DNA of 64,000 nucleotides from Patescibacteria group bacterium (GTDB lineage: Bacteria; Patescibacteriota; JACPGU01): NCBI GenBank assembly GCA_022703645.1, contig JAKLDG010000001.1:338814-402813 (forward strand). Direction: 5' to 3'. The position numbers and the translations under genes are program-made. Under the pieces are notes generated by a model that was not told the origin of the DNA, made no database searches, and worked only from the letters and a program-made list of their open reading frames with translations. Of this stretch, positions 2,383 through 61,362 are shown one piece after another; positions within the stretch are counted from its first letter, which is position 1; every line of letters starts with the position of its first letter.

Positions 2383-3129
2383 ATGAATGAATGTAATCCG
2401 GGTTTGGTTAGATTAAATAAATTTTTATCAAAGAATAGTTTGATTTCAAGGAGAACTGCTGATAAGCTGATAATACAAGGTAAAATTACGGTAAATGGTG
2501 AAAAGATTAAAGAGCTGGGAATAAAGATTAATCCTGAAAAGGACAGTGTTTTTATTGACGGAAAAAAGATTAAAATTCAAGACGATAAAGTTTATTATAT
2601 TCTCAATAAACCTGTTGGGTATATCACAACTATGAGCGACCCAAGAGGAAGAAAAAAGGTAGTTGATCTAGTGCCGAAATACCCAAAAGTATACCCCGTA
2701 GGACGTCTTGACTATGATTCCAGTGGTCTGCTGATTCTTACAAACGATGGCGACCTAACATATAGACTAACTCATCCAAAGTTTGAAAAAGAAAAGTCTT
2801 ATGAGGTTAAATGCAGAATTATGAATTATGAATCAGGGATTATGAACGATAAAATAATTGTGGGGAAATTTTTAAAGGGAATAAGATTGAAAGAAGGGGT
2901 TGCGAAAGCAGATAATGTAAAAGTTTTAAGCCAGAAAGGCGATATAATAACATTTAATATAACACTTCATCAAGGCTGGAATAGGCAAATTAGACGCATG
3001 TGCGCTACTGTAGGTTTGGACGTGATTTCACTGAAAAGAGTAAGGATTGGTAAATTACTATTAGGAAATATAAAAGAGGGAATGTGGCAAAAAATAAATC
3101 CAAAAGACACAAAAAAGTATTTCGAATAA
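2383..3129 (+). CDS. pseudouridine synthase, RsuA/RluB/RluF family (S4 domain + catalytic domain)
   Basis: N-terminal S4 RNA-binding motif (LNKFLSKNSLISRRTADKLIIQGKITVNGEK), catalytic GRLDYDSSGLLILTNDG motif with Asp. Confidence 0.8.
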   Translation: MNECNPGLVRLNKFLSKNSLISRRTADKLIIQGKITVNGEKIKELGIKINPEKDSVFIDGKKIKIQDDKVYYILNKPVGYITTMSDPRGRKKVVDLVPKYPKVYPVGRLDYDSSGLLILTNDGDLTYRLTHPKFEKEKSYEVKCRIMNYESGIMNDKIIVGKFLKGIRLKEGVAKADNVKVLSQKGDIITFNITLHQGWNRQIRRMCATVGLDVISLKRVRIGKLLLGNIKEGMWQKINPKDTKKYFE

Positions 3130-5306: not shown

Positions 5307-6152
5307 TTATTTTAGTCTGCCGATATCTTCTACTGCCTTTTTGAATAAATCTACTAAGTTTGGATAATCTAGGTGATTCAAAACCTCTCCTTCTTCCACC
5401 CATTTAATTTCTTTAATATGAGCTTCCGGATTAATTATAGTATTTACCTGAGTAGTTCGTATAAGATAGAAGTGCACGCTTTTTTTGATAACCTCTTCGC
5501 CGCTTTTATCAGTAAATTTAATTTCGCCAACTTCACCAAGAATTTCAGCCTCAGTTATACCTGTTTCTTCTTGAATTTCTCTTACAGCTGCTTCTTGCCA
5601 AGTTTCTCCTTCTTCAACTTTACCTTTTGGAAAAGTCCATTTATCATAAGGGTTTTTGACAATTATAAAAAAGTTTTTCCCATTTTCTACGCGGTATATT
5701 ATTCCACCAGCGCTAATTATCAAGTTTTCTTCTTCATACTTACTACTTGCGCGGTAAATTGTTCCCAATACACCATTAATGAACTTACCACTGTTTTCTC
5801 CGCCAAATTCCTTACCAAGCTCCACAGCCTCATTAATAACCGCTTTTGGAGGCACTTCTGCATCATAAATCAACTCATAAATACCAATTCGCAATATAGA
5901 GCGGTCAATAGTGGCAATCTGTTCAAGAGGCCATTCGGGAGCAGTCTTTTTGATTAAGTCATTGATCTCTGATATTTTTTCCACCGTTCCTTTTATAATC
6001 TTACGGCAAAATTCCTCATCAACCTTAAAACCGGAATTTTCAATATTCCGTTTTAAAATTTCAGCAATATCTCTTTCTTCATCAAAATCCCACTCGTAAA
6101 GAGATTGTAAAACAACCATTCTTGACTGATGTCTAATAGATAGGTGAGACAT
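5307..6152 (-). CDS. nusB: NusB antitermination factor fused to a C-terminal Nudix hydrolase domain
   Basis: N-terminal ~137 aa NusB-like (LQSLYEWDF...INGVLGTIYR); C-terminal Nudix box GKVEEGETWQEAAVREIQEETGI. Confidence 0.75.
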   Translation of the reverse strand: MSHLSIRHQSRMVVLQSLYEWDFDEERDIAEILKRNIENSGFKVDEEFCRKIIKGTVEKISEINDLIKKTAPEWPLEQIATIDRSILRIGIYELIYDAEVPPKAVINEAVELGKEFGGENSGKFINGVLGTIYRASSKYEEENLIISAGGIIYRVENGKNFFIIVKNPYDKWTFPKGKVEEGETWQEAAVREIQEETGITEAEILGEVGEIKFTDKSGEEVIKKSVHFYLIRTTQVNTIINPEAHIKEIKWVEEGEVLNHLDYPNLVDLFKKAVEDIGRLK

Positions 6153-6578: not shown

Positions 6579-7040
6579 CTAAGCTCTTTTTGCAATATTC
6601 TTAGGGTTATTCATATCCCGACCCCACGTTGATGGATTTGATTCTATATAAGAATAAATTTCATCGTAAGATTTTTCATTGCGGATAATGTGTTCATAAT
6701 AGTTGCGTTGCCAGATACGATTTTCAAATGGTATTAATATATTTTGTTTAACCCCATCAATGCATTTTTTCGTTGTTAGTGATTTAAAACGTTGAATTAT
6801 TTGCGGCAATGACAGTTGTTTTTCTGTAGGGGCAAACCCCCGTGTTTGCCCGTTTTTAATTGGGCGGACACAGGGGTCCGCCCCTACGATACAGATAATC
6901 AAATGTATATGATTTGGCATAACAGAAAATATATCTACCTCGATATTTGAATAATACTTTGGGATTTCTTCTATCGTTTGGAAAATTATTATCCCAATAT
7001 CATTCAATCTCATCCCTCCATCAACAATTTCTCCGAACAA
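6579..7040 (-). CDS. IS200/IS605-like tyrosine transposase with RAYT-like C-terminal motifs, N-terminally disrupted copy (nonsense at codon 2 of the full-length frame; TTG internal start)
   Basis: HxH motif (MPNHIHLI), C-terminal WQRNYYEHIIRNE...YIESNP resembling the RAYT tyrosine-helix motif; full frame extends to ATG ~7145 but codon 2 is TAA; paralog at 20626..21183. Confidence 0.6.
   Translation of the reverse strand: MFGEIVDGGMRLNDIGIIIFQTIEEIPKYYSNIEVDIFSVMPNHIHLIICIVGADPCVRPIKNGQTRGFAPTEKQLSLPQIIQRFKSLTTKKCIDGVKQNILIPFENRIWQRNYYEHIIRNEKSYDEIYSYIESNPSTWGRDMNNPKNIAKRA
6826..6887. repeat. REP-like doublet: GTAGGGG-[GGGCAAAC..GTTTGCCC]-spacer-[GGGCGGAC..GTCCGCCC]-CTAC, embedded in-frame in transposase ORF
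   Basis: two GC-rich 8-bp-stem hairpins bracketed by GTAGGGG/CCCCTAC inverted termini, ~60% GC in ~35% GC background; translated as ...VGADPCVRPIKNGQTRGFAP... Confidence 0.7.
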
Positions 7041-17292: not shown

Positions 17293-17886
17293 TTATTTTT
17301 CAAGATCATCAATCATTTTGTCGCATTCTTTTCTAATTAATTTGATACCATTATTGCCCTTAGTATTAAGGCAACGTGTGTCAACTTTGTAGGATGATTC
17401 GCAAATTGTAGCTGCACAACCAGAACCGAGTAAGTCGAAGGTCGGTTCTTCTTTGGAATTAAGGCAAAGGTCTATCTTTTTCATAAGCATATAAGCATTC
17501 TTGCAAGATGGCTCTACTCTGTACGCTATCGACACTGGCTTTTTTGCATTATTGCTCAAGTTTCTCAACATTTTAATGCTTTTATCTTGAGAATTCTTAA
17601 TCTGTTTTACCTTTCCGTTAATTTCTTTCGTAGTATTATATAATTCATCAATTTTCTGCGACTGTTCAGGCGTAAAACCTATGCCGAACATGCCCGTGCT
17701 AATGATATCATTACCATTATGCGTGATCCTGTTCATAATTTTACTATGCGCAATAAATGGTATCGCCGGAATCATCAAAATAAAAGCGATAATGACAATC
17801 AATGCTCCGATAGGAAACTTATTCATTTTCACCTCATTCACCTCTATGAGTAGAATTGTATCCTCCAACTGGAGGAGGCCAAACAT
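17293..17886 (-). CDS. hypothetical membrane-anchored protein with 6 Cys in ectodomain (true start probably MNKFPIGAL.. at ~17826)
   Basis: ORF track; TM anchor then Cys-containing soluble domain. Confidence 0.45.
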   Translation of the reverse strand: MFGLLQLEDTILLIEVNEVKMNKFPIGALIVIIAFILMIPAIPFIAHSKIMNRITHNGNDIISTGMFGIGFTPEQSQKIDELYNTTKEINGKVKQIKNSQDKSIKMLRNLSNNAKKPVSIAYRVEPSCKNAYMLMKKIDLCLNSKEEPTFDLLGSGCAATICESSYKVDTRCLNTKGNNGIKLIRKECDKMIDDLEK

Positions 17887-24521: not shown

Positions 24522-24529
24522 AGTAAATT

Positions 24530-24563
24530 AAAAATTAAAAATCAAAATGTAAAATGACAGATG
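24530..24563. repeat. AT-rich inverted-repeat arm (R orientation) of IVS-like element; contains start codon of 24554 gene
   Basis: reverse complement CATCTGTCATTTTACATTTTGAT... identical over 23 nt to arm at 26941. Confidence 0.6.
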
Positions 24564-24919
24564 CAAATTTTAAAAATGAATTTAAGAAAAGATTGTACTC
24601 GTTCGTTTTACGATTAATTAAATATATAAATAGTCTCCCAAGATCACAATCAAACGATGTTATAGGAAAACAACTGTTAAGAAGTGGTACGAGTATATTG
24701 GCTAATTTTATAGAAGCTAATTCAGCCAGCAGTAAAAAAGATTTTACGAACTTTTTTAATCATAGCTTAAAATCTGCCAATGAATCAAAGGTTTGGTTAA
24801 CACTTTTCCGCGATACAAACCCTATAAACAATGAGAATGTTTTTTTGATAAAAGAACTTTGCGAGATTGCAAACATCTTAGCATCAAGTATATTAACTTT
24901 AAAAGGAAAAAAGAAATAA
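24554..24919 (+). CDS. four-helix-bundle protein (TIGR02436 / '23S rRNA intervening-sequence protein' family)
   Basis: family-typical LLRSGTSILANFIEANSASSKKDF...HSLKSANESKVWL; 121 aa. Confidence 0.7.
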   Translation: MTDANFKNEFKKRLYSFVLRLIKYINSLPRSQSNDVIGKQLLRSGTSILANFIEANSASSKKDFTNFFNHSLKSANESKVWLTLFRDTNPINNENVFLIKELCEIANILASSILTLKGKKK

Positions 24920-26880: not shown

Positions 26881-26985
26881 TAAAAATCAAAGTGCAAAAA
26901 ATTGGGGTTCCTGCGGAATGATATCTAATTTTTAATTTTACATCTGTCATTTTACATTTTGATATTTACATTTTACATTGCATGG
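26881..26985. repeat. IVS-like AT-rich inverted-repeat pair (R...F, ~35-bp spacer, 'empty' copy)
   Basis: AAAAATCAAAGTGCAAAAAATT ... CATCTGTCATTTTACATTTTGATATTTACATTTTACATT. Confidence 0.55.
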
Positions 26986-30574: not shown

Positions 30575-30676
30575 TATCAAAATGCAAATATCAAAGTGTA
30601 AAATGACAAATTAAAATTAAAAATGTATAATATGCCAAAGGCATACCAAAATTTTACATTTTGATTTTTAAATTTT
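30575..30676. repeat. IVS-like AT-rich inverted-repeat pair (R...F, 'empty' copy) in divergent promoter region
   Basis: ATATCAAAGTGTAAAATGACAAATT ... AAATTTTACATTTTGATTTTT; central TATGCCaaaGGCATA palindrome. Confidence 0.55.
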
Positions 30677-30685
30677 AAATTTATC

Positions 30686-31626: not shown

Positions 31627-33006
31627 ATGTCTATGCCTAAAACGAATTTGAAATTTGTTTGTAATAATTGCGGGGCGGAGTTCCTTCGCTGGCAGGGGAA
31701 ATGCTCAGCATGTAATGAATGGGAAACCCTCGAAGAAATTAAAATTTCTTCTCGAGTTCAAAGTTCAAAGTTAAAAGTTCAAAGTGGCGGTGTTGCTGCG
31801 CAACTTATTTCTTTAGATAAAGTTGATAGTAAAAATTTTGAAAGAATCAAAACTAATATAAGTGAATTTGACCGCGTGCTTGGCGGGGGGATCGTACTCG
31901 GTTCGCTGGTTCTCTTAGGTGGAGATCCGGGGATAGGAAAGAGTACTTTGCTTCTCCAATCTCTCGTTGGAATTTCACAAAATAAAAGTCTGACGAAAAT
32001 TCTTTACGTCAGCGGCGAAGAATCAGCGCAACAAATAAAGCTTCGCGCGGAAAGACTGAAAATTAAAAATGAAAAGATATTTCTGCTTGCTGAAAGCGAT
32101 CTGGAATCAATCCTTGCAACTATTGAAATGGAAAAACCAAACCTGGTTATTATTGATTCTATTCAAACCGTATATTCCGATCAAATTGCTTCCGCGTCAG
32201 GCAGTATAGTACAGGTGAAAAACGCTACCGAGTCCCTGATGCGCGTTGCAAAAGCCACGAATGTGCCGATTTTTATTATCGGACATGTGACAAAAGATGG
32301 GGGGATAGCGGGTCCAAAAACGCTTGAGCATCTTGTTGATGTTGTTCTTTACCTCGAAGGAGACCGCTATCAATCTTTCCGAATCCTGCGCGGGATAAAA
32401 AATAGATTTGGCAAAACTTCCGAGGTTGGAATATTTGAAATGGAAGAAAATGGCATGACTGAAGTTGCAAATCCTTCAAAGGTTTTTCTCGAAGAACGTC
32501 TTGAAGGGGCGAGCGGTGTTGCAGTTAGTTCGATTATCGAGGGTAACCGTCCGTTTCTGGTTGAAATTCAAGCATTGTGTTCCAAGAGTTATTTTGGTTA
32601 TCCAAAAAGAACGTCTTCAGGAATCGATTTAAATAGATTGAATTTGTTAATTGCAATTATTGAAAAACGCGTGGGTGTGGATATGAGTCAATTTGATTGC
32701 TATCTCAATGTTGTTGGAGGCATCAGAATTCGTGAAAATTCAGTTGACTTGGCAGCTGCTTTATCGATAATTTCGGCGGCAAAAAACAAGCCAATAGACG
32801 ACCACACAGCCATTTTCGGAGAACTCGGGCTTTCGGGCGAAATTCGCTCTATTCCAAATCTGGAAAAAAGAATCGAGGAGGCAATCCGCATGGGGTTTGA
32901 CAAAATAGTCATTCCGAAGCAAAATAGTCAAAGCAAATTGAAGCCTGTGGGAAAAGTGAAATTTATTGAAGTAAGAACGCTAAAAGAGTCAATGGGAAGG
33001 GTATAG
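31627..33006 (+). CDS. radA: DNA repair protein RadA/Sms
   Basis: N-terminal C4 zinc finger CNNCGAEF..CSACNEW, Walker A GGDPGIGKST, KNRFG motif, Lon-like C-terminal domain. Confidence 0.9.
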   Translation: MSMPKTNLKFVCNNCGAEFLRWQGKCSACNEWETLEEIKISSRVQSSKLKVQSGGVAAQLISLDKVDSKNFERIKTNISEFDRVLGGGIVLGSLVLLGGDPGIGKSTLLLQSLVGISQNKSLTKILYVSGEESAQQIKLRAERLKIKNEKIFLLAESDLESILATIEMEKPNLVIIDSIQTVYSDQIASASGSIVQVKNATESLMRVAKATNVPIFIIGHVTKDGGIAGPKTLEHLVDVVLYLEGDRYQSFRILRGIKNRFGKTSEVGIFEMEENGMTEVANPSKVFLEERLEGASGVAVSSIIEGNRPFLVEIQALCSKSYFGYPKRTSSGIDLNRLNLLIAIIEKRVGVDMSQFDCYLNVVGGIRIRENSVDLAAALSIISAAKNKPIDDHTAIFGELGLSGEIRSIPNLEKRIEEAIRMGFDKIVIPKQNSQSKLKPVGKVKFIEVRTLKESMGRV

Positions 33007-46500: not shown

Positions 46501-49500
46501 ATGATTGTGGTAAAGAAAAAGAAAATACCTTTAAGACCGTTTTTAATCCTCTTAGTGTTAATAGCTGGGTTTACTTTGAGTTTGGGTTTAAAACCAAATG
46601 AAAAAATAAAAGCGGCTTATTCTAATCCTTGCAAGACAGCTGGCACGTATGCTGGTTATGTAGTTGACGCGAATCTTAATGTTATTATTCCGGCTTACAA
46701 TAATGCTGTGTTTGGTGACACTTTCTATGATAGTACCAGCAAAGAAATTCATTGTAAAAGCATAACGATAGAAACGGGAGCGACTTTAGATATATCGCCA
46801 AAAACTACCGGTGCAAGTAAAACAGGCGGCACAAATTATAGAAGATTGGTTCTTGATGGTGATTTGAATATCGCAAGCGGTGGAACGCTAAATCTATATG
46901 GCGGCAATATATATAATACCGGCGGACTCAATGGCACTGGGATAACAAATGATGGAAAAGGATATGGTATGAATGTTATGGTTGGTGGAAATGTTTTGGT
47001 TGAATCCGGCGGATGGATATCAGCTGATGGCAAAGGGTATGAACATAGTAAGGGGCCGGGAGCAGGTGTGGCTGAACCCGGTTCACAAGGCGCTGCATAT
47101 GGTGGGGCTGGTCCGGATGGAACCAATTGTTATGGGAAATATTACGGTTCGGTTTCTGACCCGATAGAACTCGGCAGCGGCAGTAGTTTGGGAGTAGGAG
47201 GCGGAGTAGTTGATATAACTGCCGCGGGAACAATATTAATTCGCGGCGTAGGCAAAATTACGGCAAACAGCATTGGAGAGGGATCGGGCGGTTCAGTAAG
47301 ACTCAGCGCCAATACTATTAGTAGTACAATTGACGGCGTAAATATACCTTCTATTACAGCAAATGGCGGTAGTGGGTCTTATTACAGTGGCGGCGGCAGA
47401 ATCGCGCTTTTTTATAATTCATCAAATTTTGGCGGTGATATCAAAGCTATTGCTAACGCCTATGGAGGAGCTGGCACTGTATTCAAGAAAAAAAATATCG
47501 AGGCTTATGGTGATTTAATTATTACAAATAATTATCAGGATCATACCGATAACCCTCCGGACTATACTCCATATGCATATACAAAAATTGGCAAAACAAA
47601 AATCGATTCTGGCACATATAAGAATATCACAGTTAATAAAAGAGCAAACGCTATTATTGAATCTAGTAATATAGTAAACATCAATGGTGGTACTTTTGAA
47701 GTAAATAATTCCAAACTTGAAAATAAAGGCACTTTAGCTTCACAGACTTCCGCAGAAAAATTTCTGGCGAAAAATACCGCTCGGATACTTAATAGCGGTA
47801 CAGGGTTATTTAGCCTGTCCGCGAACTCAAACGCTATATTTGACGGCATAGACACTTATTTTGAGAACCAAAATAATATTATCCAAAATTTCGCCAATTT
47901 AACTATCTCTAACGGGGCTGTCATGAGCCATGCCGTCAATGATGCTACCGGTGTGACAAATTGTCTTAGGAATTCAATTGATAATCCAGTTGGCGGCGCG
48001 ATCCCTCCTTGCGAATATAAGGATTGGGGTGATGGCTATGGGAAACATTGGAATCAAAAATATACCTTAAGGATAAATGCCACAAGTGTTAATATTGATA
48101 ACAAAAGTTCGATAGATGTTTCACAAAAGGGATTTCAAACATTACCTGGAACATCAGGTTTTGGGCCGGGAGGGTCAAGTACGGCTTACTCAATCGGTGG
48201 TTACGCGGGAGGTTCTTATGGTGGCAGAGGTGGTAACGATAATACTGGGGGAGTAAGCGCAGATATTTATGGCGACTCGGATGGAGACCTGAATAATCCA
48301 AATGATCTGGGAAGCAGCGGTGATACCGGCTATACTGCCGGAGGATTAGTAAGAATAACAGTTTTGGGCGATATTGTTAATAATGGCTCTATATTATCAA
48401 ATTCAGGTACGGTTTCAAATGGTTTTGCCGGTGGGTCAGGAGGAGGCATAAGATTGGATGCAGACCGGATTCTCGGAGCTGGAAAAATTTCTGCCAACGG
48501 CATGCCCGGAACGATAGATCTTGCGAAAGGCGGCGGAGGAGGCGGAAGGATCGCGATCACATACAAAACCACAAAAGATTTTTATGGTCCAATTACCGCT
48601 TATGGAGGGTCTACTGATGGGGGACCCGGTACGATACTTTTTGCAAACAATAGCTCGGGAGCCTTAATTGATAAAGAACTTGTTATTTCTAATTCAGTTT
48701 TAAACGACAATCCAACCAAAATAGGAGGCGGTACGTATAAAAATATTACCGTAAAGAATACCTCGCCAACTCTTACTGACCTGACTTTAGCCGCAATCGT
48801 TTCTGGACAATCCGTTGTCATGCAAGATGGTGGGAATTTTGAAGTTAACCAAACTAATTTAACTAATAGCGGAACTATTTCTTTATTAGCCGGAACGTCA
48901 AATTTAGTTATAAAGGGAAAATCAAATTTTATTAATATCGGACCTACCGCCTCTCCTGGCATTAACGCGAATAGTACTTCTAAAGTTATTTTGGACAATG
49001 CCAATTTTGAAAATAAGAATAATATTGAACAGAATTTTGGCAATCTTTATATCCAGAATGGAGCAATATTAACGCATACTCAAAATGATTACTTAACGGT
49101 AAATTGCGTGAATACTTCCTGTACCAACCAAGACCTGGGTGATGGCAATGGAATGCATTACAATCAGGCTTATACATTAAGAATACATGCAAACAATGCT
49201 TTAATTGATAAATTTAGCGCTATTAATGTTGATGGCAAGGGCTATGACATGGGTAGAGGACCGGGTAATAATGGGTCTGCTAATTCTGCCGGAAGTTATG
49301 GCGGAGCTGCGTCAAGCGGCGACAGTACCTATGGTTTAGCGGATAACCCTAATGATTTGGGCAGTGGAGGTTATTCCGGTAGTTATGGTGATAATACCGG
49401 CGGCGGTTTAGTAAGAGTTAGGGCAGACGGTAATATAACAGTTGATGGCTTTATTTCTTCGGATACAACATCTGCCGGATCTTTTGACGGCGCTTCAGGA

Positions 49501-52500
49501 GGCGGTATAAAATTAATAGCAAATAGTATTCTTGGCTCCGGTTCTATTTCCGCTAGTTCTAATTTGACAAGCGGGAATATTGGCGGAGGTGGCAGAATAT
49601 CTCTCATAGCTACGCAAAAAAATTACAGCGGCACCGTCTCTGTGAATAGAGGTGGAACTGGAGCGAATTACGGTACTATTTATGATTCTCTGGCTATCCC
49701 TACGACTTATGGTCCGAGCGCAACACCATTAACTTATAATACAAAATTAAGTAATAATACTCCATATATAAAAGCCGATAGTTCAGCAACAACGATAGGT
49801 GTTGATGAAGGCAATGCAGTTAGCACTGGATATACTCCAGATTCTGATACCTCACTTCTTTTGAAAATGGATAACTGGGGAGATGGTCTTATTTATGATT
49901 CTTCCGCAAAATCAATACCTGTTATTAAATATGGCACAACTTCCTTCTCTGATACTGTTTTGAAAACTGGAACGCATTCACTATTATTTAATGGTTCCAC
50001 AGGTCGTTTAATACCTGATGGTACTTTTACATCAAATTTCCAGTATGGCACCGGAGCTTTTACTATTGATACTTGGATTTATCCAAAATCTGTTACGACA
50101 CTTCAAACAATTTATTCTCAAAAAAATAGCGCGACACCAACAACTAATGCATCATCATTACAAATTACTACTACCGGTCAGCTAAAATATACTGAAAATG
50201 GAGTTTCTATTATTTCTCCTGTCAGTACTATAAAACTAGGCAGTGATGTCGGATGGCAACATGTTGCTTTAGTTAGAGATAATTTAGGGGTTGAAAGATT
50301 ATTTTATAATGGTTCCGTAGTAGGAACACAGTCGTCTACATACTCCAAATTCAGCGATGTCGGTATCGGATGTTTATACCAGTCTACTAATACATTATTT
50401 TATAATGGCTATATGGATGAGTTCCGTATCAGTAAAGGAGTGGCGCGCTGGACCTCTGATTTTATTCCATTATCTGATGATGGCAACTGGGAAAAATTAA
50501 ATTTGAGAGCAACAAGGACTAACCCTAGCTCCGATACTAAGCTTTTGCTTCATCTCGATGGAACAAATGGATCAACTACCTATACTGACAGTTCTCCTTC
50601 AAACCATACAATATTGCGTTACAACACACCAACAATTTCCACTAACACTAGTAAATTTGGCGGCGCGTCAGGCGCTTTCCCGAGAGTAACCTCTCCATAC
50701 TTTGATTATATTTATGCTAATGATAATGTTAATGATTGGACTTTTGGCGCGGGTGATTTTACGATAGATTTTTGGGCTAACTTTTCAGATAATGTCAGGC
50801 AAGGTGTTCTTGCCATCGGCTCCGGCGCTTATGCTCCAATTGCTTTTGAAGTAGTAAGCAACAATCTTAACGTCTACATGACTAGTAATGGTAGCAGTTG
50901 GGATATCGCTAGCGGTCAACCAGTTGGCCAAACATTTGGTCCGGTAACACCAGGCGTTTGGGTACATTATGCGCTAACAAGGAATGGAAATACTTTTTAT
51001 CTTTTTGTTAATGGTACTACTGTAAACTCTTTTATGTCATCATTAAGTTTATGGAATAATAGCGGCGCTTTATATATAGGGCAATATTTTGGGTCTGTTA
51101 CAGCCTTTAAGGGCTATCTGGATGAATTTAGAATTATAAAGGGAAGAGCGGCTTGGAGTAATAATTTTACTCCTTCTACAACTCCCTATGAAATTTATGA
51201 TGACCCGTCTTTCAATGGAACGGTAGATATTGGCATAATAGATAATCTTGCAGGTGAATATGTTTTTTCCGGCTGCAACGGAGCGAACTGTACTTTTTCA
51301 GATTCAAAAGTTACAGCGAGATTCATAAATGGTATTGCTAATTTAGCAGTAAAAGTAAAAGACAAAAGAGATGGGCAGATAAAGCATCACGGTTTTTCAG
51401 GGCTAAAAATTAACTCCGTTTCAAATGTATCTTATATAAATAATAATCAAATAACCGGAGCTATCGAAATTCAAGATAGAACCCCAGAAAGATCAATACC
51501 ATCAGGTCCTGCCCCCGCAGGAAGTATTACTAAAGGAACTGCTGGCGCTACTATTTTTCCAATGGGAGCCGGTTTTAGTATTATAAATAATTCCAAAGGA
51601 ACCAGTCAGAGCCAACAAGATTTGGGTGGTAATTTAGTGGTTCGAGGTCCATTAGCATCCGCGCCATATCGTCTTTACCTTGATAAAAACATAATGTATA
51701 AAAGAGGTGATTATTTGAATAGCGACGGAACTATTAGCAGCGTGGCAACAGATTATCAAGTGGTTTGTGTTAATACAGCGGACTATACCCAAACAAAAAT
51801 AAGATGTAATGATGATCTGAGCACCAGCGCTATTCCATCAGGATTGCGAAATTATGGTATATATACATTTAATAAAACTTATAATTTCTATACCCAGAAC
51901 GAAACCTCTAATTATTCAGCGCCTTCAATATCTCAAGTTCTTATACCAGCTAGCAACCCAACTGTGCCTGTTATTTCTCCTTTAACAATAACTCCGACTA
52001 ACGGAAAATTAAATCTCAGCTGGAATAATCCAATTGATAATATCGGGCAAACAAAAACTTTGATCGTTAGAGGTATCGATAGTATTCCTACTTTCGTTCC
52101 AAGTGATGGGACGGATTATAATACCTGGTCAAATACTACTGTAACCGGAGAAGAGATGATCTATGACAGCACTAATGTCGGGGCGGGAAGTGAAGTAAAA
52201 AACTTTGACGATGCCAATGTATTTTTTGGAACCAGATACTGCTATACAATCTATGCTCAATATATTGGTTATATTTATTCGGTAGGGACTTCTGCTTGCA
52301 GCACTCTAACATCAATTATTGATCCGCCAGTCAACCCAACTATCACGATTCAAGGAATGATGATAAATATCGGATGGACAGCGCCACCTTCCGGCAATCC
52401 TGATAATTACCTGATTGTTAGAAAAAAAGGCACAACAGAACCAAACTGGAATCCAACCGGGGAAACTGCTGACTATAATATTGGTGATACGGTTGGCGAT

Positions 52501-55500
52501 GGTGTTGTTGTCTGTAAAGGATTTTCATGCACTGATCAAAATGTAAATGTAAATACTTTGCCAACCCAGTATTATTATAAAATTTATGCTCAGTATGGAA
52601 CCGCGGCTCCCTTCAGTTATTCTGTCGGTTCAACGGCAGTAAGCGGAAATCCTAACCCGGAAAACCCCCAAAAGTTTGATAATACCAATGAAGCAACACC
52701 AAGTGTAACACTGGACAATCTATCAGGACCTTACACGCCTCTTAATACATTTAAGATTGCAAATTATCTTGTCTGGAAAGCAACAACTCCGGCTGATTGC
52801 TCAGGGGCTTGGACGCCAACCAATGGAGCTGACTATTCAGGAGTGCAAGGAACTGGAAATATCATTTACAAAAACCCAGCAGCGCCAATATCATATATTG
52901 ATACTGCAGTTACAAATGGCGTTGGTTATTGTTACAAAATCTTTGTCCAATATAATGGTGAAACAATCAATACTACTGATCTAATGTATTCTTCTGGATT
53001 AAGTCTTTGGACTCAACCGCCAAATCATAATCCAACAATTAGCGTAAATAGCATCACCCAAACGATCGGCACGGATAATGTGGTAATTAACTTTAATGTA
53101 AATGATATTGATCCATCTGATAATGGCAAGCTTTCTGTTGGCTTTGCTGTTACAAATCCGGTTTCAGGATGCAGTATTAGCACTTTAACCGGACCAATAA
53201 CTAACCTCGGTGTCGGAGCTCATAGCGTTACTTGGACCGCCACTACCACTAATGGAACCGCGGGGGATTGTCCAGGCGTAGAAATGTTAGCCGGTTCTGC
53301 TCAACTGACAGCCACTGTTTCCGATTTTATCGGAGCCACCGGTACCGCTAGTCCAACTTTCTCTCTTGACACCAAAGCTCCCATTGCAAGTTCCAGCCTT
53401 ATTTTGTCCTCCAAAAACAGCAACTCCATTACTGTCGCTACCGGAGCTACCGGGGCTACTGATGGAAACATAAAAACTACCGCTGCCTATAAAGTCTATT
53501 ACAAGCAAGGATCAACGGTAGACGAAGTAAGCGGTACGCAAATACTACCAAATATTAATAGTTATGTTGCGGGACAGATATTTACTGCTTCCTCGCTAAT
53601 AACTAACCAGCAATATTCATTTAATATCTGGGCTTATGATAACTATGGACATAAAACTGCTGCTACGGTATTAAATGTCAGCACAAAAGGAAAATCTGTT
53701 ACAGGATTTACAGCTATAGTTCAAGGTATGAGAGTCCATCTGAGTTGGGACGCAATGCTGCCGGCGCCAGATAAGCATCTGGTTATTCGTAAGAAAGGAA
53801 CATCCGCGTCTACTTGGACGCCAACAGATGGTATTGGAATATATGCTGCTGGCAACACGGTAGATGCAGATACGATAGTAGTTTACCATGGCACAGGCGT
53901 CACTCTGGATGATGATGCAGTTGATGGAGCAGCCTATACCTATACTATCTTTGCCAACTATTCTGGAAATCTATATTCAGAGGGGGTTTCAGCTCCATCG
54001 ATAACACCGAATGCTCTGAACGCGTCGTTATCTGCTCCTGCCTATATACCAAATGGATCAAATTATGATATCGCACTCAACTGGGTAGCCCCCACACCAA
54101 GTTACAGTTTACAAAAATATGTAGTAGTTAGAGAAGTTGGGTCTCCTACTTGTTTAATCGAATGGACGCCAACCAAGGATAATAACTATAATGCATTAGA
54201 TCCAACCGGCTTTACTAATGAAGAAATTATCTATTCCGGAACCGGAACCACTACTACTGATAATATGGGAGGAACGGGAGTTTCTTCTGGTACAAATGTT
54301 TGCTATAAGATCTTTACTCAATATCTGGGAGATGATTTAGCGGTTCCAACAAACTTAGTTTATTCCGCTGGAATTGCCGCTACCTATGTACCGCCAAATC
54401 TGCCTCCAGAGATAGAGATTGGTTCAGTCACAGCGCTACAAACTACCGGAACTGAAAATATTGTTATAGCTTACCGTGTTAGAGATTCCGACTCAACCAA
54501 TTTGAATATTACATTTAGCATGATTGATCCGGGAGGCTCCACTTGCCAAATGAATTTAACTGATAATTTGGCGGGGATTGATGGCACTTACTATACTCAT
54601 ACCGCTACTTGGAATGCAGGGCTGGCAGGAGAGTGCCCGGGATTTGAAGTAACAAATGCTGTTATCCAAGTAACTGCCAGCGATAGTCTTAATTCTGTTT
54701 CGCAAAACTCCGCTCCATTTCTGCTTGATACTCTATCCCCAAGGCTTCCAACTCCAACTGTTTCTAACTTTAATTTAACTAATTTTTCATCAACAGGAGA
54801 TAAGATATTCTTCAATCTAGGATCTAATTCAACAACTGATACTAATGCGCTTAACTACAAGATATACTATGCTTCTGGGGGAAGTGTTGATGAAACAGGA
54901 ATACTCATAACAGGAGCTCCTATAGCATTTACTCCTGGAGCTGCATATTCGGTAACCGGATTAACACCGGGACAAAACTATACATTTAATATTTGGGCTT
55001 ATGATAAATATGGGCATAAAACTTCTGCGACTTCCGTAACATATTCAACTATTGTGCCTGCTCCGGCAAGCTTCTCTGTAACTCCGCATGGAATGAGATT
55101 ATCACTTACTTGGACGGCTCCTGTCGGTGGAACCCCAGACTATTATCTGATAGTTAGAAAAGCTAATTCAGATCCAATAATAGCTCCCGCTAATGGTTCT
55201 ACATACAACCTGGGGGATATTTTGAGCGGGGGAATGGTAGTCTACAATTCAACCGGGACAAGCCTTGACGATGATAATATTGATGACGGTCCTTACTATT
55301 ACCGAATTTATGCGCATTATTCAAATGGCAATTTCTCACCAGCCTTGGCTGGCAATGCGATTGCAGTGGCGGAAGGACCAAATACATTCAGCGCAACCTC
55401 AAGCCCAGCGCCAGTAGTCACATACATAGACACTCCACCAACAAATAATTTCAGTTTCGAGAACTATCTTATTTGGAAGAAAGAACAACCTAGCTGTACT

Positions 55501-57534
55501 ACTGATGGCAATCTGGTAGACGGTACGGTATATAATTATCTTGATTCAGTAGATGGGGGAACGATTATTTATAAATCAAACATTGATCCTAATGGTATGT
55601 CTGATATCTCAACTACAATAACTGGCCATACTTACTGCTACAAGATGTTCGTAGAGTATAATGGAGAAACTACTAATACTATCTATTCTAATGAAATGTA
55701 CTTTCAAATCACTCCTCCAAATAATCCTCCGACTCTTTCCGCTCTTTCTGTTGTTCAAACAATAGGTAGTGACGATGTTGTAATCGGATTTACTATTAAT
55801 GATCCGGATGGAATTGACGCTGGCAATCTCTCAGTCGCTTTATCAATTGTTAACCCTCCAGAAGGATGCAGTATCGGTACAATATCTGGTTCTTTGACTG
55901 GTTTATCAAATGGTAGTTATTCGGTTACTTGGACTGATGCCGATACTACTTGCCCTGGGCTTGAATTATCTAATGCTGGTTTAGAGTTTATTGCTCACGA
56001 CCTGATAGATTATTCATCTGCGCAGATAAGCAGTTTTTTACTCGACACTAAAGCGCCTACACTAATAGAGGGGCTAACATATGACCCACCAACCGCAGAT
56101 ACTATTGTAGTACGCCTAAGCACCAATACATTCTTCTTAAATCCTTTGAGTGTTGATCAAAATCTAAAAGGAGGAGGAAATAGCTTTAAGATTTACTACA
56201 AACAAGACAGTACCGTTTCAGAATCCGATACACAATTAGCTGCCTTTGATAATTATATCTTAGGGCAAGACTATACGGCCACACCATTAGGATCTAATTC
56301 ACAATATTCATTTAATATCTGGGCTTATGATAACTATGGACATAAGACAGCATATACTGATCCAGTCAAGCCAACTACCAGCGGTCTCAACGGACCACCA
56401 GTAGTACAATATGTTGCTCAACCAGTCCAAGCTGCTGGTACTGGTAATATCAATTTCAGTTTTGAAGTAAAAGATCCAGACTCGGATGGTTTAACTATCA
56501 CATTCTCACTAATTAATAATCCAGTCGGTTGCAGTATCTCTGGCGTTACTGGGTTTACCAATCCTGTATCCTCCACCAGTACTTTTGCAACAATTATCTC
56601 CAGCTGGAATGCGAAATTAACTTGTGATGGAGCGGATCAGTCTGACCTCAAGATCAGAATTAGCGCGGATGATGGAAACGGACATACAGCAACTATTGAT
56701 TCAGATCCATTTACTATCGATACGAAAAATCCTGTCTCTCCAGGAAACCTATCATTCCCAGCAGGAACTACTTTTGCGAATCAGGTTAGTGTAAAGACAA
56801 ATACTATTTCCGGTAGCGATACTAATGCCGATGATTGGCATGTATATAGGGTTGATGGAAATACTTTCCCAACGGATCCATTCTCTCCTGCTCTAACTCC
56901 AATTAAATTATATGATCCTTATATACCAGATGACGTATTTATTGATTCGGGGTTAACGCCAGATTCTGATTATACTTATAATATCTGCCTGCATGATACT
57001 TTTATGAACTTTACCTGCGCAACATCGCAAACTATTCATACACCAGCTTCAATATTAAGCTTTAATATTCTTGGTATTGCCAGTGGAATATCGGTTGGAG
57101 TTGAAACAACTAATATCACTACTACTTCTACAACAATTCCTTTTGGCAGTACTACAGTAGGGGATACAAAGGTTGGAGCGCTTGATCTACAAGGCACAAC
57201 AAATCTGGTTAATGGATATACTATTGATATCAGACAAGACCAAGATTTAACATCAGGAGGCAACACTATTCCTGCCCTTACCTCTACTAACGCTAGTCCG
57301 CAAGTATGGCCACCAACTCCAATTAGTTCTTTCTTTGGATATTCATCAATCAATCTTTCCAGATTTTCAAATGGCGTTAATTGGGCAGGATTAACTTTGT
57401 CTGACCTACCGATAGTAACACAGATAAACGGGACTCATGATGATGATGTTTTATTCAAATTATCCACCAAGAGTCCTCAACCAGCAGGAACTTATCAAAA
57501 CACCATTACTTTCTCAATAATGGCGAATCCGTAG
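46501..57534 (+). CDS. giant (3,677 aa) adhesin-like surface protein: N-terminal TM/signal, Gly-rich beta-helix-like region, two LamG/ConA-like lectin domains, ~7 FN3-like and ~5 Ig-like repeats
   Basis: LamG signatures (GAFTIDTWIYPKS...YMDEFRISKG; GDFTIDFWANFS...YLDEFRIIKG); FN3-like units with WTAP...CYKI(F/Y)xQY; Ig-like units ending F(S/L)LDTKAP; Gly-rich GGYAGGSYGGRGGN. Confidence 0.75.
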   Translation: MIVVKKKKIPLRPFLILLVLIAGFTLSLGLKPNEKIKAAYSNPCKTAGTYAGYVVDANLNVIIPAYNNAVFGDTFYDSTSKEIHCKSITIETGATLDISPKTTGASKTGGTNYRRLVLDGDLNIASGGTLNLYGGNIYNTGGLNGTGITNDGKGYGMNVMVGGNVLVESGGWISADGKGYEHSKGPGAGVAEPGSQGAAYGGAGPDGTNCYGKYYGSVSDPIELGSGSSLGVGGGVVDITAAGTILIRGVGKITANSIGEGSGGSVRLSANTISSTIDGVNIPSITANGGSGSYYSGGGRIALFYNSSNFGGDIKAIANAYGGAGTVFKKKNIEAYGDLIITNNYQDHTDNPPDYTPYAYTKIGKTKIDSGTYKNITVNKRANAIIESSNIVNINGGTFEVNNSKLENKGTLASQTSAEKFLAKNTARILNSGTGLFSLSANSNAIFDGIDTYFENQNNIIQNFANLTISNGAVMSHAVNDATGVTNCLRNSIDNPVGGAIPPCEYKDWGDGYGKHWNQKYTLRINATSVNIDNKSSIDVSQKGFQTLPGTSGFGPGGSSTAYSIGGYAGGSYGGRGGNDNTGGVSADIYGDSDGDLNNPNDLGSSGDTGYTAGGLVRITVLGDIVNNGSILSNSGTVSNGFAGGSGGGIRLDADRILGAGKISANGMPGTIDLAKGGGGGGRIAITYKTTKDFYGPITAYGGSTDGGPGTILFANNSSGALIDKELVISNSVLNDNPTKIGGGTYKNITVKNTSPTLTDLTLAAIVSGQSVVMQDGGNFEVNQTNLTNSGTISLLAGTSNLVIKGKSNFINIGPTASPGINANSTSKVILDNANFENKNNIEQNFGNLYIQNGAILTHTQNDYLTVNCVNTSCTNQDLGDGNGMHYNQAYTLRIHANNALIDKFSAINVDGKGYDMGRGPGNNGSANSAGSYGGAASSGDSTYGLADNPNDLGSGGYSGSYGDNTGGGLVRVRADGNITVDGFISSDTTSAGSFDGASGGGIKLIANSILGSGSISASSNLTSGNIGGGGRISLIATQKNYSGTVSVNRGGTGANYGTIYDSLAIPTTYGPSATPLTYNTKLSNNTPYIKADSSATTIGVDEGNAVSTGYTPDSDTSLLLKMDNWGDGLIYDSSAKSIPVIKYGTTSFSDTVLKTGTHSLLFNGSTGRLIPDGTFTSNFQYGTGAFTIDTWIYPKSVTTLQTIYSQKNSATPTTNASSLQITTTGQLKYTENGVSIISPVSTIKLGSDVGWQHVALVRDNLGVERLFYNGSVVGTQSSTYSKFSDVGIGCLYQSTNTLFYNGYMDEFRISKGVARWTSDFIPLSDDGNWEKLNLRATRTNPSSDTKLLLHLDGTNGSTTYTDSSPSNHTILRYNTPTISTNTSKFGGASGAFPRVTSPYFDYIYANDNVNDWTFGAGDFTIDFWANFSDNVRQGVLAIGSGAYAPIAFEVVSNNLNVYMTSNGSSWDIASGQPVGQTFGPVTPGVWVHYALTRNGNTFYLFVNGTTVNSFMSSLSLWNNSGALYIGQYFGSVTAFKGYLDEFRIIKGRAAWSNNFTPSTTPYEIYDDPSFNGTVDIGIIDNLAGEYVFSGCNGANCTFSDSKVTARFINGIANLAVKVKDKRDGQIKHHGFSGLKINSVSNVSYINNNQITGAIEIQDRTPERSIPSGPAPAGSITKGTAGATIFPMGAGFSIINNSKGTSQSQQDLGGNLVVRGPLASAPYRLYLDKNIMYKRGDYLNSDGTISSVATDYQVVCVNTADYTQTKIRCNDDLSTSAIPSGLRNYGIYTFNKTYNFYTQNETSNYSAPSISQVLIPASNPTVPVISPLTITPTNGKLNLSWNNPIDNIGQTKTLIVRGIDSIPTFVPSDGTDYNTWSNTTVTGEEMIYDSTNVGAGSEVKNFDDANVFFGTRYCYTIYAQYIGYIYSVGTSACSTLTSIIDPPVNPTITIQGMMINIGWTAPPSGNPDNYLIVRKKGTTEPNWNPTGETADYNIGDTVGDGVVVCKGFSCTDQNVNVNTLPTQYYYKIYAQYGTAAPFSYSVGSTAVSGNPNPENPQKFDNTNEATPSVTLDNLSGPYTPLNTFKIANYLVWKATTPADCSGAWTPTNGADYSGVQGTGNIIYKNPAAPISYIDTAVTNGVGYCYKIFVQYNGETINTTDLMYSSGLSLWTQPPNHNPTISVNSITQTIGTDNVVINFNVNDIDPSDNGKLSVGFAVTNPVSGCSISTLTGPITNLGVGAHSVTWTATTTNGTAGDCPGVEMLAGSAQLTATVSDFIGATGTASPTFSLDTKAPIASSSLILSSKNSNSITVATGATGATDGNIKTTAAYKVYYKQGSTVDEVSGTQILPNINSYVAGQIFTASSLITNQQYSFNIWAYDNYGHKTAATVLNVSTKGKSVTGFTAIVQGMRVHLSWDAMLPAPDKHLVIRKKGTSASTWTPTDGIGIYAAGNTVDADTIVVYHGTGVTLDDDAVDGAAYTYTIFANYSGNLYSEGVSAPSITPNALNASLSAPAYIPNGSNYDIALNWVAPTPSYSLQKYVVVREVGSPTCLIEWTPTKDNNYNALDPTGFTNEEIIYSGTGTTTTDNMGGTGVSSGTNVCYKIFTQYLGDDLAVPTNLVYSAGIAATYVPPNLPPEIEIGSVTALQTTGTENIVIAYRVRDSDSTNLNITFSMIDPGGSTCQMNLTDNLAGIDGTYYTHTATWNAGLAGECPGFEVTNAVIQVTASDSLNSVSQNSAPFLLDTLSPRLPTPTVSNFNLTNFSSTGDKIFFNLGSNSTTDTNALNYKIYYASGGSVDETGILITGAPIAFTPGAAYSVTGLTPGQNYTFNIWAYDKYGHKTSATSVTYSTIVPAPASFSVTPHGMRLSLTWTAPVGGTPDYYLIVRKANSDPIIAPANGSTYNLGDILSGGMVVYNSTGTSLDDDNIDDGPYYYRIYAHYSNGNFSPALAGNAIAVAEGPNTFSATSSPAPVVTYIDTPPTNNFSFENYLIWKKEQPSCTTDGNLVDGTVYNYLDSVDGGTIIYKSNIDPNGMSDISTTITGHTYCYKMFVEYNGETTNTIYSNEMYFQITPPNNPPTLSALSVVQTIGSDDVVIGFTINDPDGIDAGNLSVALSIVNPPEGCSIGTISGSLTGLSNGSYSVTWTDADTTCPGLELSNAGLEFIAHDLIDYSSAQISSFLLDTKAPTLIEGLTYDPPTADTIVVRLSTNTFFLNPLSVDQNLKGGGNSFKIYYKQDSTVSESDTQLAAFDNYILGQDYTATPLGSNSQYSFNIWAYDNYGHKTAYTDPVKPTTSGLNGPPVVQYVAQPVQAAGTGNINFSFEVKDPDSDGLTITFSLINNPVGCSISGVTGFTNPVSSTSTFATIISSWNAKLTCDGADQSDLKIRISADDGNGHTATIDSDPFTIDTKNPVSPGNLSFPAGTTFANQVSVKTNTISGSDTNADDWHVYRVDGNTFPTDPFSPALTPIKLYDPYIPDDVFIDSGLTPDSDYTYNICLHDTFMNFTCATSQTIHTPASILSFNILGIASGISVGVETTNITTTSTTIPFGSTTVGDTKVGALDLQGTTNLVNGYTIDIRQDQDLTSGGNTIPALTSTNASPQVWPPTPISSFFGYSSINLSRFSNGVNWAGLTLSDLPIVTQINGTHDDDVLFKLSTKSPQPAGTYQNTITFSIMANP

Positions 57535-57575: not shown

Positions 57576-58289
57576 ATGCTAAAAAAAATATCTACAACCC
57601 TTCTCATTACTGCTTCCATATTAATATTCTCCAACCAAGCCTTGGCGCAAGAAACTACTAACACTATCAGCTCTTCTGTTTCTCCAGCGTTAATTAGTCT
57701 CAAATTAGATAAAGGAGAAACTAAAAGCTCTTCTTATGAGTATGTCAATGGTACTGATGATAATCTTATAATTACTATTAGCACTAGAGCCTTTGCTCCT
57801 AGTAATGGGGAACATGGAACCCCGCTATTTATAGACAAAGATGGAAAAAAGGTTACTTCACCCTTAACCAGTTGGATTAAATTAAATGAGAGTAGTATGA
57901 GTGTTAAGAAAGGGGAGAAAGCAACTGTAAACTTTCAGATTAATGTTCCTTCTGATGCAAAAGAAGGCAAATACTTTGCAGCTATATTTAATACAGAAAC
58001 TGATGGGGGGTCAGATAGCGGTTCATTAGTAAAGAAAGAGTTGGGAGTTACTCTGGTTGTTGAAGTTCTCGCCCCCAAACCAATACCAGGCACTACTACA
58101 ACCACATGGCAGAAAGACAATCTTCTTTCCTATATTATTTTTGGTGCTGCGTTATTGGCATTACTATTATTAATTGCTGCGATATTTAAGAGGAAAAAGA
58201 AAACTCCAAAATTCTTCCCGGAAGAGGAAAGGAAAGAGTTAGTAAAGAAAGTAAAACGAAAAGTAAAAATCACCAAAAATAAAAAATAG
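57576..58289 (+). CDS. cell-surface protein with signal peptide, beta-rich ectodomain, C-terminal TM anchor and Lys-rich cytoplasmic tail
   Basis: signal peptide ...SNQALA; C-terminal LLSYIIFGAALLALLLLIAAIFKRKKK. Confidence 0.5.
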   Translation: MLKKISTTLLITASILIFSNQALAQETTNTISSSVSPALISLKLDKGETKSSSYEYVNGTDDNLIITISTRAFAPSNGEHGTPLFIDKDGKKVTSPLTSWIKLNESSMSVKKGEKATVNFQINVPSDAKEGKYFAAIFNTETDGGSDSGSLVKKELGVTLVVEVLAPKPIPGTTTTTWQKDNLLSYIIFGAALLALLLLIAAIFKRKKKTPKFFPEEERKELVKKVKRKVKITKNKK

Positions 58290-58321: not shown

Positions 58322-59179
58322 ATGAGCAATCAAGACGATGTCCGCATAAATATTTTAGGAATTCCTATCGATCGGGTAGGTTATATTGATGTTTTAGATA
58401 AGATTGAATACTATATAAAAAAAGGCGGGTATCACTATATCGCAACGGTTAATCCAGAGTTTATTATGCACGCGGCGCAAGATAGCGAGTTTAAAAAAGC
58501 ACTACAAAATTCGAACTTAAATACAGCTGATGGCGTCGGAATCGTATGGGCAAGTAAATATCTTGCGAAAACTCAAAAATCAAATCTCAAATCTCAAAAT
58601 TTAAGCATCACTTCGCGATTTATTTATAAAATCAAAAAGATATTCTGGTTGAAAATTTCTTTGTTCTCAATTTTATTTAACCGTCGTTGGCTCTATTCTG
58701 AAATTCCGGAGCGTGTTACCGGAGCAGACCTGATCTGGAAAATAGCAAAAAAAGCGCAAGATGAAGGCTGGAAAATTTTCCTACTTGGAGCAGGGGAGGG
58801 AGTCGCGGGAAACGTTGCGGGAAAATTGAAATCAAAATTCCCGAAAATTAATATTGTCGGTACTTATTCAGGCCGCCCGGAAGAAGAGGGGATTGCTGAT
58901 AGAGTTGCCGGATATGAACCGGATATTTTGTTTGTTGCTTTTGGCTCTCCTCGACAGGAAAAATTCATTTATAACAATTTGGATAAGCTCAATGCAAAAG
59001 TTGTTATTGGAGTCGGTGGAACATTTGATTTTATTGCTGGGCTAGCAAGAAGAGCGCCAAGATTTATGAGGAGATTCGGAATTGAATGGTTATGGAGACT
59101 TGTCTGCCAACCATTTCGAATCGGCAGAATTATCAACGCTTTTCCAAAATTTGTCTGGAAAGTTTGGAGGGGTAAATAA
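58322..59179 (+). CDS. WecB/TagA/CpsF-family glycosyltransferase
   Basis: INILGIPIDRVGYIDVLDKI...YHYIATVNPEFIMHA matches WecG/TagA N-terminal signature. Confidence 0.8.
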   Translation: MSNQDDVRINILGIPIDRVGYIDVLDKIEYYIKKGGYHYIATVNPEFIMHAAQDSEFKKALQNSNLNTADGVGIVWASKYLAKTQKSNLKSQNLSITSRFIYKIKKIFWLKISLFSILFNRRWLYSEIPERVTGADLIWKIAKKAQDEGWKIFLLGAGEGVAGNVAGKLKSKFPKINIVGTYSGRPEEEGIADRVAGYEPDILFVAFGSPRQEKFIYNNLDKLNAKVVIGVGGTFDFIAGLARRAPRFMRRFGIEWLWRLVCQPFRIGRIINAFPKFVWKVWRGK

Positions 59180-60872: not shown

Positions 60873-61091
60873 GTGGTTGCTATCGATATCAATCTATATC
60901 TTATATTTATTTTTATTGCCGCCTTTCCCGCCTCATATATCGGATTATTAATTAAGAATTATATAGATTATAAAGAAAAAAGAGGGTGGCAGTGGAAGGC
61001 AGCACACCTTCTAATTGATCTTACTGTCTGGGCGCTATTTTTCTTGATTATTCAATTTATTGCAATCCATATTTTTAAATTAAAAGTCTGA
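60873..61091 (+). CDS. small membrane protein
   Basis: ORF track; AGGAGG Shine-Dalgarno; 2 TM. Confidence 0.35.
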   Translation: MVAIDINLYLIFIFIAAFPASYIGLLIKNYIDYKEKRGWQWKAAHLLIDLTVWALFFLIIQFIAIHIFKLKV

Positions 61092-61111
61092 GATTCAAAG
61101 ATATAATTTCC

Positions 61112-61141
61112 TTAGCCGCTTTAAAGCGGCTTTTTATTTTT
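61112..61141 (+). terminator. rho-independent terminator (AGCCGCTTT/AAAGCGGCT palindrome + T-run)
   Basis: perfect 9-bp stem followed by TTTTTATTTTT. Confidence 0.7.
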
Positions 61142-61151
61142 CAATGAAATA

Positions 61152-61180
61152 TTGACAAATATTTTGCGTATTTATATAAT
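61152..61180 (+). promoter_or_regulatory. consensus sigma70 promoter TTGACA -17 nt- TATAAT for clpC
   Basis: exact -35 and -10 hexamers with 17-nt spacer; CIRCE begins 5 nt downstream. Confidence 0.75.
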
Positions 61181-61184
61181 AGAG

Positions 61185-61211
61185 TTAGCACTCAACAGGA
61201 CAGAGTGCTAA
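61185..61211 (+). promoter_or_regulatory. CIRCE element (HrcA operator) TTAGCACTC-N9-GAGTGCTAA
   Basis: perfect match to the CIRCE consensus inverted repeat with 9-nt spacer, positioned at the predicted transcription start of clpC. Confidence 0.85.
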
Positions 61212-61219
61212 AGCACTCT

Positions 61220-61292
61220 AAATAACCAATACCCAATTGAATATTGAAAAATTGGATATTGATTGGATATTGGTCATTGGATATTAAACATT
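61220..61292. repeat. CCAATA/TATTGG palindromic repeat cluster (copy 3) in clpC 5' leader
   Basis: AACCAATACCCAATTGAATATT...AATTGGATATTGATTGGATATTGGTCATTGGATATT. Confidence 0.6.
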
Positions 61293-61362
61293 TTTATTCA
61301 AACAAAGTATTACTTAAATAAAATTTATATAGTAAGATTATAACTACAGGAGGATTAATTAT

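Follow-up and report, generated by a model that had tools for sequence, protein, structure and literature searches.

A clpC gene of an uncultured, ultrasmall patescibacterium is preceded by an exact consensus promoter and a perfect CIRCE element, the operator of the HrcA repressor, and the same arrangement is found at clpC in related lineages. It appears that in CPR3/Microgenomates-related Patescibacteria clpC has come to belong to the class I heat-shock regulon, that of HrcA, instead of being placed under CtsR, and from the sequence data we put the probability of this reading at roughly 0.8. In Firmicutes, clpC is under CtsR control. To our knowledge, gene regulation in Patescibacteria/CPR has hardly been studied, and no paper linking HrcA with this group was found in the literature. 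The gene lies in a 64-kb stretch of DNA, which is referred to here as the window.

In the proposed mechanism, clpC would be transcribed from its own consensus sigma-70-type promoter, with the perfect CIRCE covering the start region. HrcA, which would be encoded elsewhere in the genome, would bind to CIRCE when there is no stress and would thus block initiation; unfolded proteins would titrate GroEL from HrcA, upon which the repressor would leave and clpC would be induced. We infer that HrcA binds and represses, that heat induces clpC, and where transcription starts; the case for HrcA control of clpC rests on the identity of the site with the consensus and on its operator-like conservation.

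The clpC gene (61363-63876, + strand) encodes an 837-aa Hsp100/ClpC-type unfoldase, as judged from Pfam domains and alignments to relatives of solved structure, and its product is recorded at NCBI as HRY60383.1 from 'Patescibacteria group bacterium'. The identical protein is also encoded on metagenome contigs, among them one of 206.8 kb from ENA and others of up to 867 kb, and ENA has it under ERZ27257455 (contig k141_216223). Two Clp_N repeats, a UVR motif, and two AAA+ modules are recognised by Pfam. The best solved relative is ClpC from B. subtilis (814 bits, full length); S. aureus ClpC and M. tuberculosis ClpC1 also align over the full length, whereas ClpB aligns in two pieces only. The LGF tripeptide of the host protein corresponds in the alignment to VGF, the loop with which B. 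subtilis ClpC docks to ClpP, and most of the ClpB alignments end before this loop. Therefore, the domain set, the full-length matches to ClpC proteins, and the LGF loop identify the product as an unfoldase that partners ClpP, and the label clpC is correct. The sequence-only reading had placed CIRCE in front of clpC, and the gene downstream of the element is indeed of genuine ClpC type.

The closest named relatives of this ClpC are from a CPR3 bacterium (67% identity) and a Microgenomates bacterium (64%). For comparison, clpC loci were taken from eight close lineages (ClpC 60-70% identical) and three more distant CPR lineages (50-57%). Among the close lineages, the gene order wecG - nusA - ... 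- clpC - (often a metallo-beta-lactamase-fold gene) - hisS - ppi is conserved. The gene with the metallo-beta-lactamase/ODP fold lies directly downstream of clpC in six lineages, in the present genome at 12696-13283 of L001, just past the end of the window, and in at least one of them (L083) the two genes overlap at the clpC stop codon. The conserved adjacency and the overlap suggest that the two genes may form an operon and be co-transcribed. A 12-bp GC-rich hairpin follows clpC at window positions 63967-63994.

Upstream of clpC, a 72-aa membrane-protein ORF ends at 61091 and is followed by its own intrinsic terminator (61114-61141, + strand), which was found in a terminator scan and consists of the stem AGCCGCTTT/AAAGCGGCT (61114-61131) and a T-run. 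This terminator insulates the clpC promoter from the upstream gene. The promoter itself (61152-61180, + strand) is of the sigma-70 type, with a -35 box TTGACA at 61152-61157, a 17-nt spacer, and a -10 box TATAAT at 61175-61180. It matches the consensus at 12 of 12 positions, as had been proposed from the sequence, and is the sole such match in the region according to a promoter scan. CIRCE was said to begin 5 nt beyond the -10 box; the gap is in fact 4 nt (AGAG). Transcription is predicted to start at about 61187, inside the left CIRCE arm. A second promoter within the clpC leader was sought and rejected, the best candidate having 9 of 12 matches, which is at chance level. The Shine-Dalgarno sequence AGGAGG, read from the sequence at 61348-61353 (+ strand), is preceded by an AT-rich stretch and lies 9 nt before the ATG at 61363. 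Just before it, a 23-nt stretch at 61323-61345 (ATTTATATAGTAAGATTATAACT) is 74% identical to the region of the -10 box and left CIRCE arm (61170-61192), of which it may be a degenerate duplicate.

The CIRCE element at 61185-61211 (+ strand), a predicted HrcA binding site, reads TTAGCACTC-AACAGGACA-GAGTGCTAA and matches the inverted repeat TTAGCACTC-N9-GAGTGCTAA at 18 of 18 positions with no mismatches, which bears out the description of it as a textbook element. Since it begins 4 nt past TTGACA-17-TATAAT, it would lie at or overlap the vegetative promoter, given the predicted start. No second site was found in the 64 kb at up to three mismatches, with 0.02 expected by chance; for an exact 18/18 match, the expectation by our own arithmetic is about 2e-6 in 64 kb. 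The operators of two other repressors do not stand out. The CtsR heptad operator RGTCAAA-NAN-RGTCAAA gave 13 matches with three mismatches against 11.6 expected, none of them in 61090-61362, and the HAIR (HspR) site CTTGAGT-N7-ACTCAAG gave one match against 2.1 expected, not near clpC.

Of the eight close lineages, whose ClpC proteins are at least 60% identical, seven have a CIRCE with zero to three mismatches upstream of clpC; L089 has none there. In the alignment of the seven, the only invariant blocks are TTGACA, TA.AAT, TTAGCACT, and GAGTGC.A, and all else differs. The -35 and -10 boxes are 17 nt apart in all seven, with TA(T/C)AAT as the -10 box, and the distance from the -10 box to CIRCE is 4 nt in six. 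The CIRCE spacer has a length of 9 nt in every lineage and a different sequence in each. Such a pattern, in which arms and hexamers are kept and the spacer and flanks have diverged, is the footprint of a palindromic operator bound by a protein. The common variant of the right arm, TAA to CAA or CAG, is accompanied by no compensating change in the left arm, which is an argument that selection acts on the contacts between protein and DNA and not on an RNA stem. The comparative sequence data show the promoter-CIRCE arrangement at clpC to be under selection.

The module is absent at the three more distant CPR clpC loci. As a negative control, 80 clpC/clpB loci from other phyla were searched, which are relatives of ClpC with at most 49% identity and not orthologues; none of the 80 has a CIRCE (up to two mismatches) within 10 kb. 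Therefore, the link between CIRCE and clpC is specific to the clade and does not simply come with clpC wherever it occurs.

The readable part of the host genome amounts to 81.5 kb, namely the 64-kb window, 10 kb downstream, and 7.6 kb upstream, or about 9% of the genome if an 867-kb contig carrying the same ClpC is assumed to be roughly genome-sized. No hrcA, groES/EL, dnaK, or second CIRCE (up to four mismatches) was found in these 81.5 kb. To look for hrcA, Pfam was run on essentially all ORFs of at least 110 aa in the window, three HrcA sequences were compared by tblastn with the window and every clpC locus, and both flanks were also read. About 200 kb from eight related genomes likewise gave no hrcA.

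A wider view of the regulon comes from a metagenome scan for TATAAT-N4-CIRCE, the matches to which are mostly hrcA-grpE-dnaK and groESL operons. On two low-GC contigs (L125 and L147), a gene for a short HrcA (226-228 aa, PF01628) stands behind TTGACA-17-TATAAT-N4-CIRCE, as at clpC. Patescibacteria encode short HrcA proteins of about 214-260 aa (PF01628) in an operon hrcA-grpE-(138 aa)-dnaK behind this promoter and operator. The short HrcA family is widespread in the group and is found among the best 120 matches in Kuenen-, Veblen-, Giovannoni-, Buchanan-, and Komeilibacteria; the named patescibacterial matches among these 120 are all of Parcubacteria type and none is from Microgenomates/CPR3. 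Perfect CIRCE elements 4 nt after TATAAT also stand on metagenome contigs directly before htpG (L134, L164), directly before hsp20-clpB (L122), and before a gene for a 703-aa Clp ATPase without N-domain (L142/L157). It is thus common for the HrcA regulon to take in other chaperone or Hsp100 genes. Contig L164, which is also rich in period-7 repeats, was considered as a relative of the host and rejected, as from its gene content it looks like a contig of Clostridia type.

These data also bear on two other explanations of the element. That CIRCE is here a relic without function, or a match that arose by chance, has a probability close to nil: besides the rarity of an exact match, seven lineages keep the site at a constant spacing from a conserved promoter, in surroundings that cannot be aligned, and this explanation is already contradicted by such sequence conservation. 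The repeat may instead act mainly as a stem-loop at the 5' end of the RNA, tuning the stability or translation of clpC mRNA independently of HrcA, with alternative folds that would make it a riboregulator or thermometer. With the predicted start, CIRCE would form the extreme 5' end of the mRNA, where its hairpin has a folding energy of -11.9 kcal/mol, and the long leaders of four lineages fold far better than shuffled sequences (z = -2.9 to -6.6). CIRCE has reportedly been seen to influence mRNA half-life in B. subtilis. Yet we hold this explanation to be very improbable, for it is the sequence and not the pairing that is conserved, the T-to-C change in the right arm leaving an uncompensated A-C mismatch. 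The three lineages with short leaders have no extra hairpin, the hairpin does not sequester the Shine-Dalgarno sequence, and there is no match to an Rfam family, a scan of the whole window having returned none at the gathering threshold. An RNA thermometer in particular was rejected, as the Shine-Dalgarno sequence is outside the stem and, depending on the fold, about 58-75 nt downstream of the end of the leader hairpin.

The alternative folds depend on a third arm, AGCACTCT, at 61212-61219 (+ strand), which the sequence-only reading had taken to compete for the right arm of CIRCE. The complementarity to AGAGTGCT at 61202-61209 within the right arm is real, and the resulting RNA hairpin (7 bp, 4-nt loop) comes to -10.0 kcal/mol, close to the value for CIRCE; the switch built upon it is not supported, as the third arm is absent from all six orthologous leaders and occurs in the host genome only. 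From this comparison, it is probably incidental. Operator function under HrcA is the preferred reading of CIRCE at clpC.

Between CIRCE and the Shine-Dalgarno sequence, about 70 nt of CCAATA/TATTGG palindromic repeats had been described, and they are present at 61221-61290 (+ strand) as a 70-nt array, similar to the STRR repeats of cyanobacteria, of CCAATAN and ATTGGAT heptamers. The CCAATAC.. units stand on the left and the inverted ATTGGAT.. units on the right; four copies of ATTGGATATTG lie at 61236-61286, and CCAATACCCAAT is the inverted partner of this sequence. The predicted fold of the array is a long, imperfect hairpin with an energy of -19.7 kcal/mol (z = -3.0). Homologous elements of 75-120 nt are found in three further leaders: that of leuS (10100-10200, - strand), starting a few nucleotides after a GTATAAT box; upstream of a gene for an RNHCP-domain protein (15725-15848, + strand), directly after TTGTAA-17-TATAAT; and upstream of ppi, a gene for a cyclophilin-type prolyl isomerase (L001 15752-15830), just outside the window. 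Each of the four copies folds into a long imperfect hairpin. The description of the region as a composite heat-shock leader is thus not upheld, since the third arm is not conserved and the CCAATA array belongs to a repeat with copies dispersed over several leaders. The array is not part of the HrcA/CIRCE switch, and most likely it is neutral or affects the mRNA in some general way, for instance in its stability.

Alternatively, the leader could be under dual control, the CCAATA/ATTGG array being read as a DNA operator or an RNA target by a second regulator with 7-nt spacing, so that clpC would be co-regulated with the leuS, cyclophilin, and RNHCP genes. All four copies in the 81.5 kb are intergenic and in 5' leaders, and in two of them a -10 box precedes the start by about 3-11 nt. 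They share the same orientation relative to the downstream gene, five of six pairwise alignments are better in the sense orientation, and ATTGGATATTG (up to one mismatch) has 23 matches against 2.9 expected, nearly all in three clusters. We nevertheless consider dual control distinctly unlikely, as the four genes have no obvious common function, the copies show no compensatory covariation, and the p-value for an orientation of 4/4 is only about 0.125. The element is missing from the clpC leaders of L085, L087, and L091, and the heptamer arrays of relatives are of unrelated sequence and also occur in coding linkers of radA and wecG, which points to a mutational or selfish process. Two other assignments of the copies were rejected. 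No target-site duplications are visible at their ends, as would be seen in a MITE; as to a terminator or attenuator, the terminator scan called none of canonical form in the leader, and in three of the four copies the T-run comes only some way downstream.

The array belongs to a wider class of repeats with a period of 7 nt. In the window, 23 tandem arrays of this period were observed against 2.2 expected from a Markov model, an excess of about 10-fold; examples are at 10110-10191, 10495-10607, 11566-11598, 15732-15837, 24525-24547, 26930-26979, and 30649-30682. Sixteen of 28 period-7 arrays are intergenic, with intergenic DNA making up 12% of the window, and for most of the intergenic ones a start codon follows within about 130 nt. 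The density in the clade is 23 per 100 kb, compared with 0.95 in 1.37 Mb from diverse bacteria and 0.27 in low-GC controls, and arrays of at least three copies number 51 in 221 kb of the clade and 13 in the 1.37 Mb. The enrichment in the clade is therefore roughly 25- to 85-fold, and it does not extend to periods of 6 and 8.

Period-7 arrays were also seen in L082, L085, and L091, and the heptamer units in the clpC leaders differ by lineage, being AGATTTG in L082, TAATACT in L083, and CTTAATA in L085. Within coding sequences, heptamer arrays of about 4.4 copies are found in radA (31755-31785) and wecG (58568-58599) of the window, as well as in radA of L085 (3239-3267) and wecG of L082 (5997-6027). 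These arrays occupy the same position in a variable linker of RadA or WecG across lineages, with units that differ or are nearly identical, and other lineages are non-repetitive there. Their presence in variable linkers suggests a mutational or selfish origin. It is conceivable that the heptamer-repeat hairpins form a clade-wide cis-acting leader system in Microgenomates/CPR3-like bacteria, with a factor that reads the 7-nt periodicity, with stabilisers of 5' ends, or with translation signals, and that clpC integrates HrcA with this second layer, but we regard this as doubtful.

Two observations on the repeats may be added. In L085 (Microgenomates, GCA_016188915.1), heptamer arrays without G (CTTAATA, CTATCCA) stand directly before the ATG with no visible Shine-Dalgarno sequence, at 6743-6765, 2498-2523 (minus strand), 9970-9996, and 17427-17460; the genes concerned are nusA, an NTP-transferase gene, clpC, and the gene for the CCA-adding enzyme. 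These may represent an alternative leader for translation initiation. In the window, a second heptamer palindrome at 10490-10612 (minus strand), upstream of a gene for a 76-aa protein, has AATTTTC and TGAAAAT units around a GC-rich central hairpin and as RNA comes to -32 kcal/mol (z = -4.0).

The closest described analogue of the CPR heptamer repeats are the STRR sequences of filamentous cyanobacteria, tandem 7-bp units that are dispersed in intergenic regions and leaders and form hairpins, of unknown function and possibly involved in transcript stability (PMC2670836). The CPR arrays are likewise tandem, 7 nt in period, dispersed, mainly intergenic, and able to form hairpins. In contrast to STRR, their units are CCAATAC/ATTGGAT (in relatives CTTAATA, AGATTTG, and others), the arrays are inverted, and homologous multi-unit copies stand in several leaders; the likeness is one of form. 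The enrichment of period-7 repeats, together with the homologous leader hairpins, may be a more original lead than the link between CIRCE and clpC.

The window has other features of note. The leucyl-tRNA synthetase (7161-10070, minus strand) carries an inserted NUDIX domain at residues 407-506, and NusB (5307-6152, minus strand) is fused to a C-terminal NUDIX domain. A giant ORF of 3677 aa (46501-57534) with a Laminin_G_3 domain is followed by a surface protein resembling WxL-interacting proteins (57576-58289). A remnant of an IS200-like Y1 transposase (6579-7040, minus strand) and a gene for a '23S rRNA intervening sequence protein' (24554-24919) are also present, and no tRNA or rRNA genes were found in the 64 kb.

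The promoter-CIRCE module before clpC provides a confident model of a consensus -35/-10 promoter for Patescibacteria, and it makes clpC a concrete and testable regulon member in CPR. The site agrees with the CIRCE/HrcA operator of the B. subtilis type, known from groESL and hrcA-grpE-dnaK, in having the same 9-N9-9 consensus (PMC545781), and also in its place immediately downstream of a sigma-70/sigma-A-type promoter, with conserved arms and a free spacer. It differs in its host, an uncultured patescibacterium of which 81.5 kb contain no cognate HrcA, and in its target: the groESL and dnaK operons are the usual targets of CIRCE/HrcA, with groESL as the sole constant member of the regulon (PMC545781). 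Compared with the ctsR-mcsA-mcsB-clpC operon of Firmicutes, the host ClpC belongs to the same gene family and shares the domain order and the ClpP loop; however, its gene has no CtsR heptad and no ctsR, mcsA, or mcsB upstream, and its neighbours are wecG, nusA, and small membrane-protein ORFs.

The nearest parallel is in Mollicutes, where clpB and lon are also under HrcA control (PMC5138195, PMC7737663). There the genome is likewise small, and HrcA, as the single repressor of the heat-shock response, also governs a gene for an Hsp100 ATPase or AAA+ protease, although the Mollicutes targets are the disaggregase ClpB and Lon, and the one proposed here is the ClpP-partner ClpC in another phylum (PMC5138195, PMC7737663). 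The conserved link between CIRCE and clpC is evidence that a reduced genome funnels its genes for protein quality control under one repressor, as in Mollicutes. Given this precedent, clpC under CIRCE would be a further case of a known extension of the regulon and not a new mechanism, that is, ordinary CIRCE/HrcA control of an unusual target gene.
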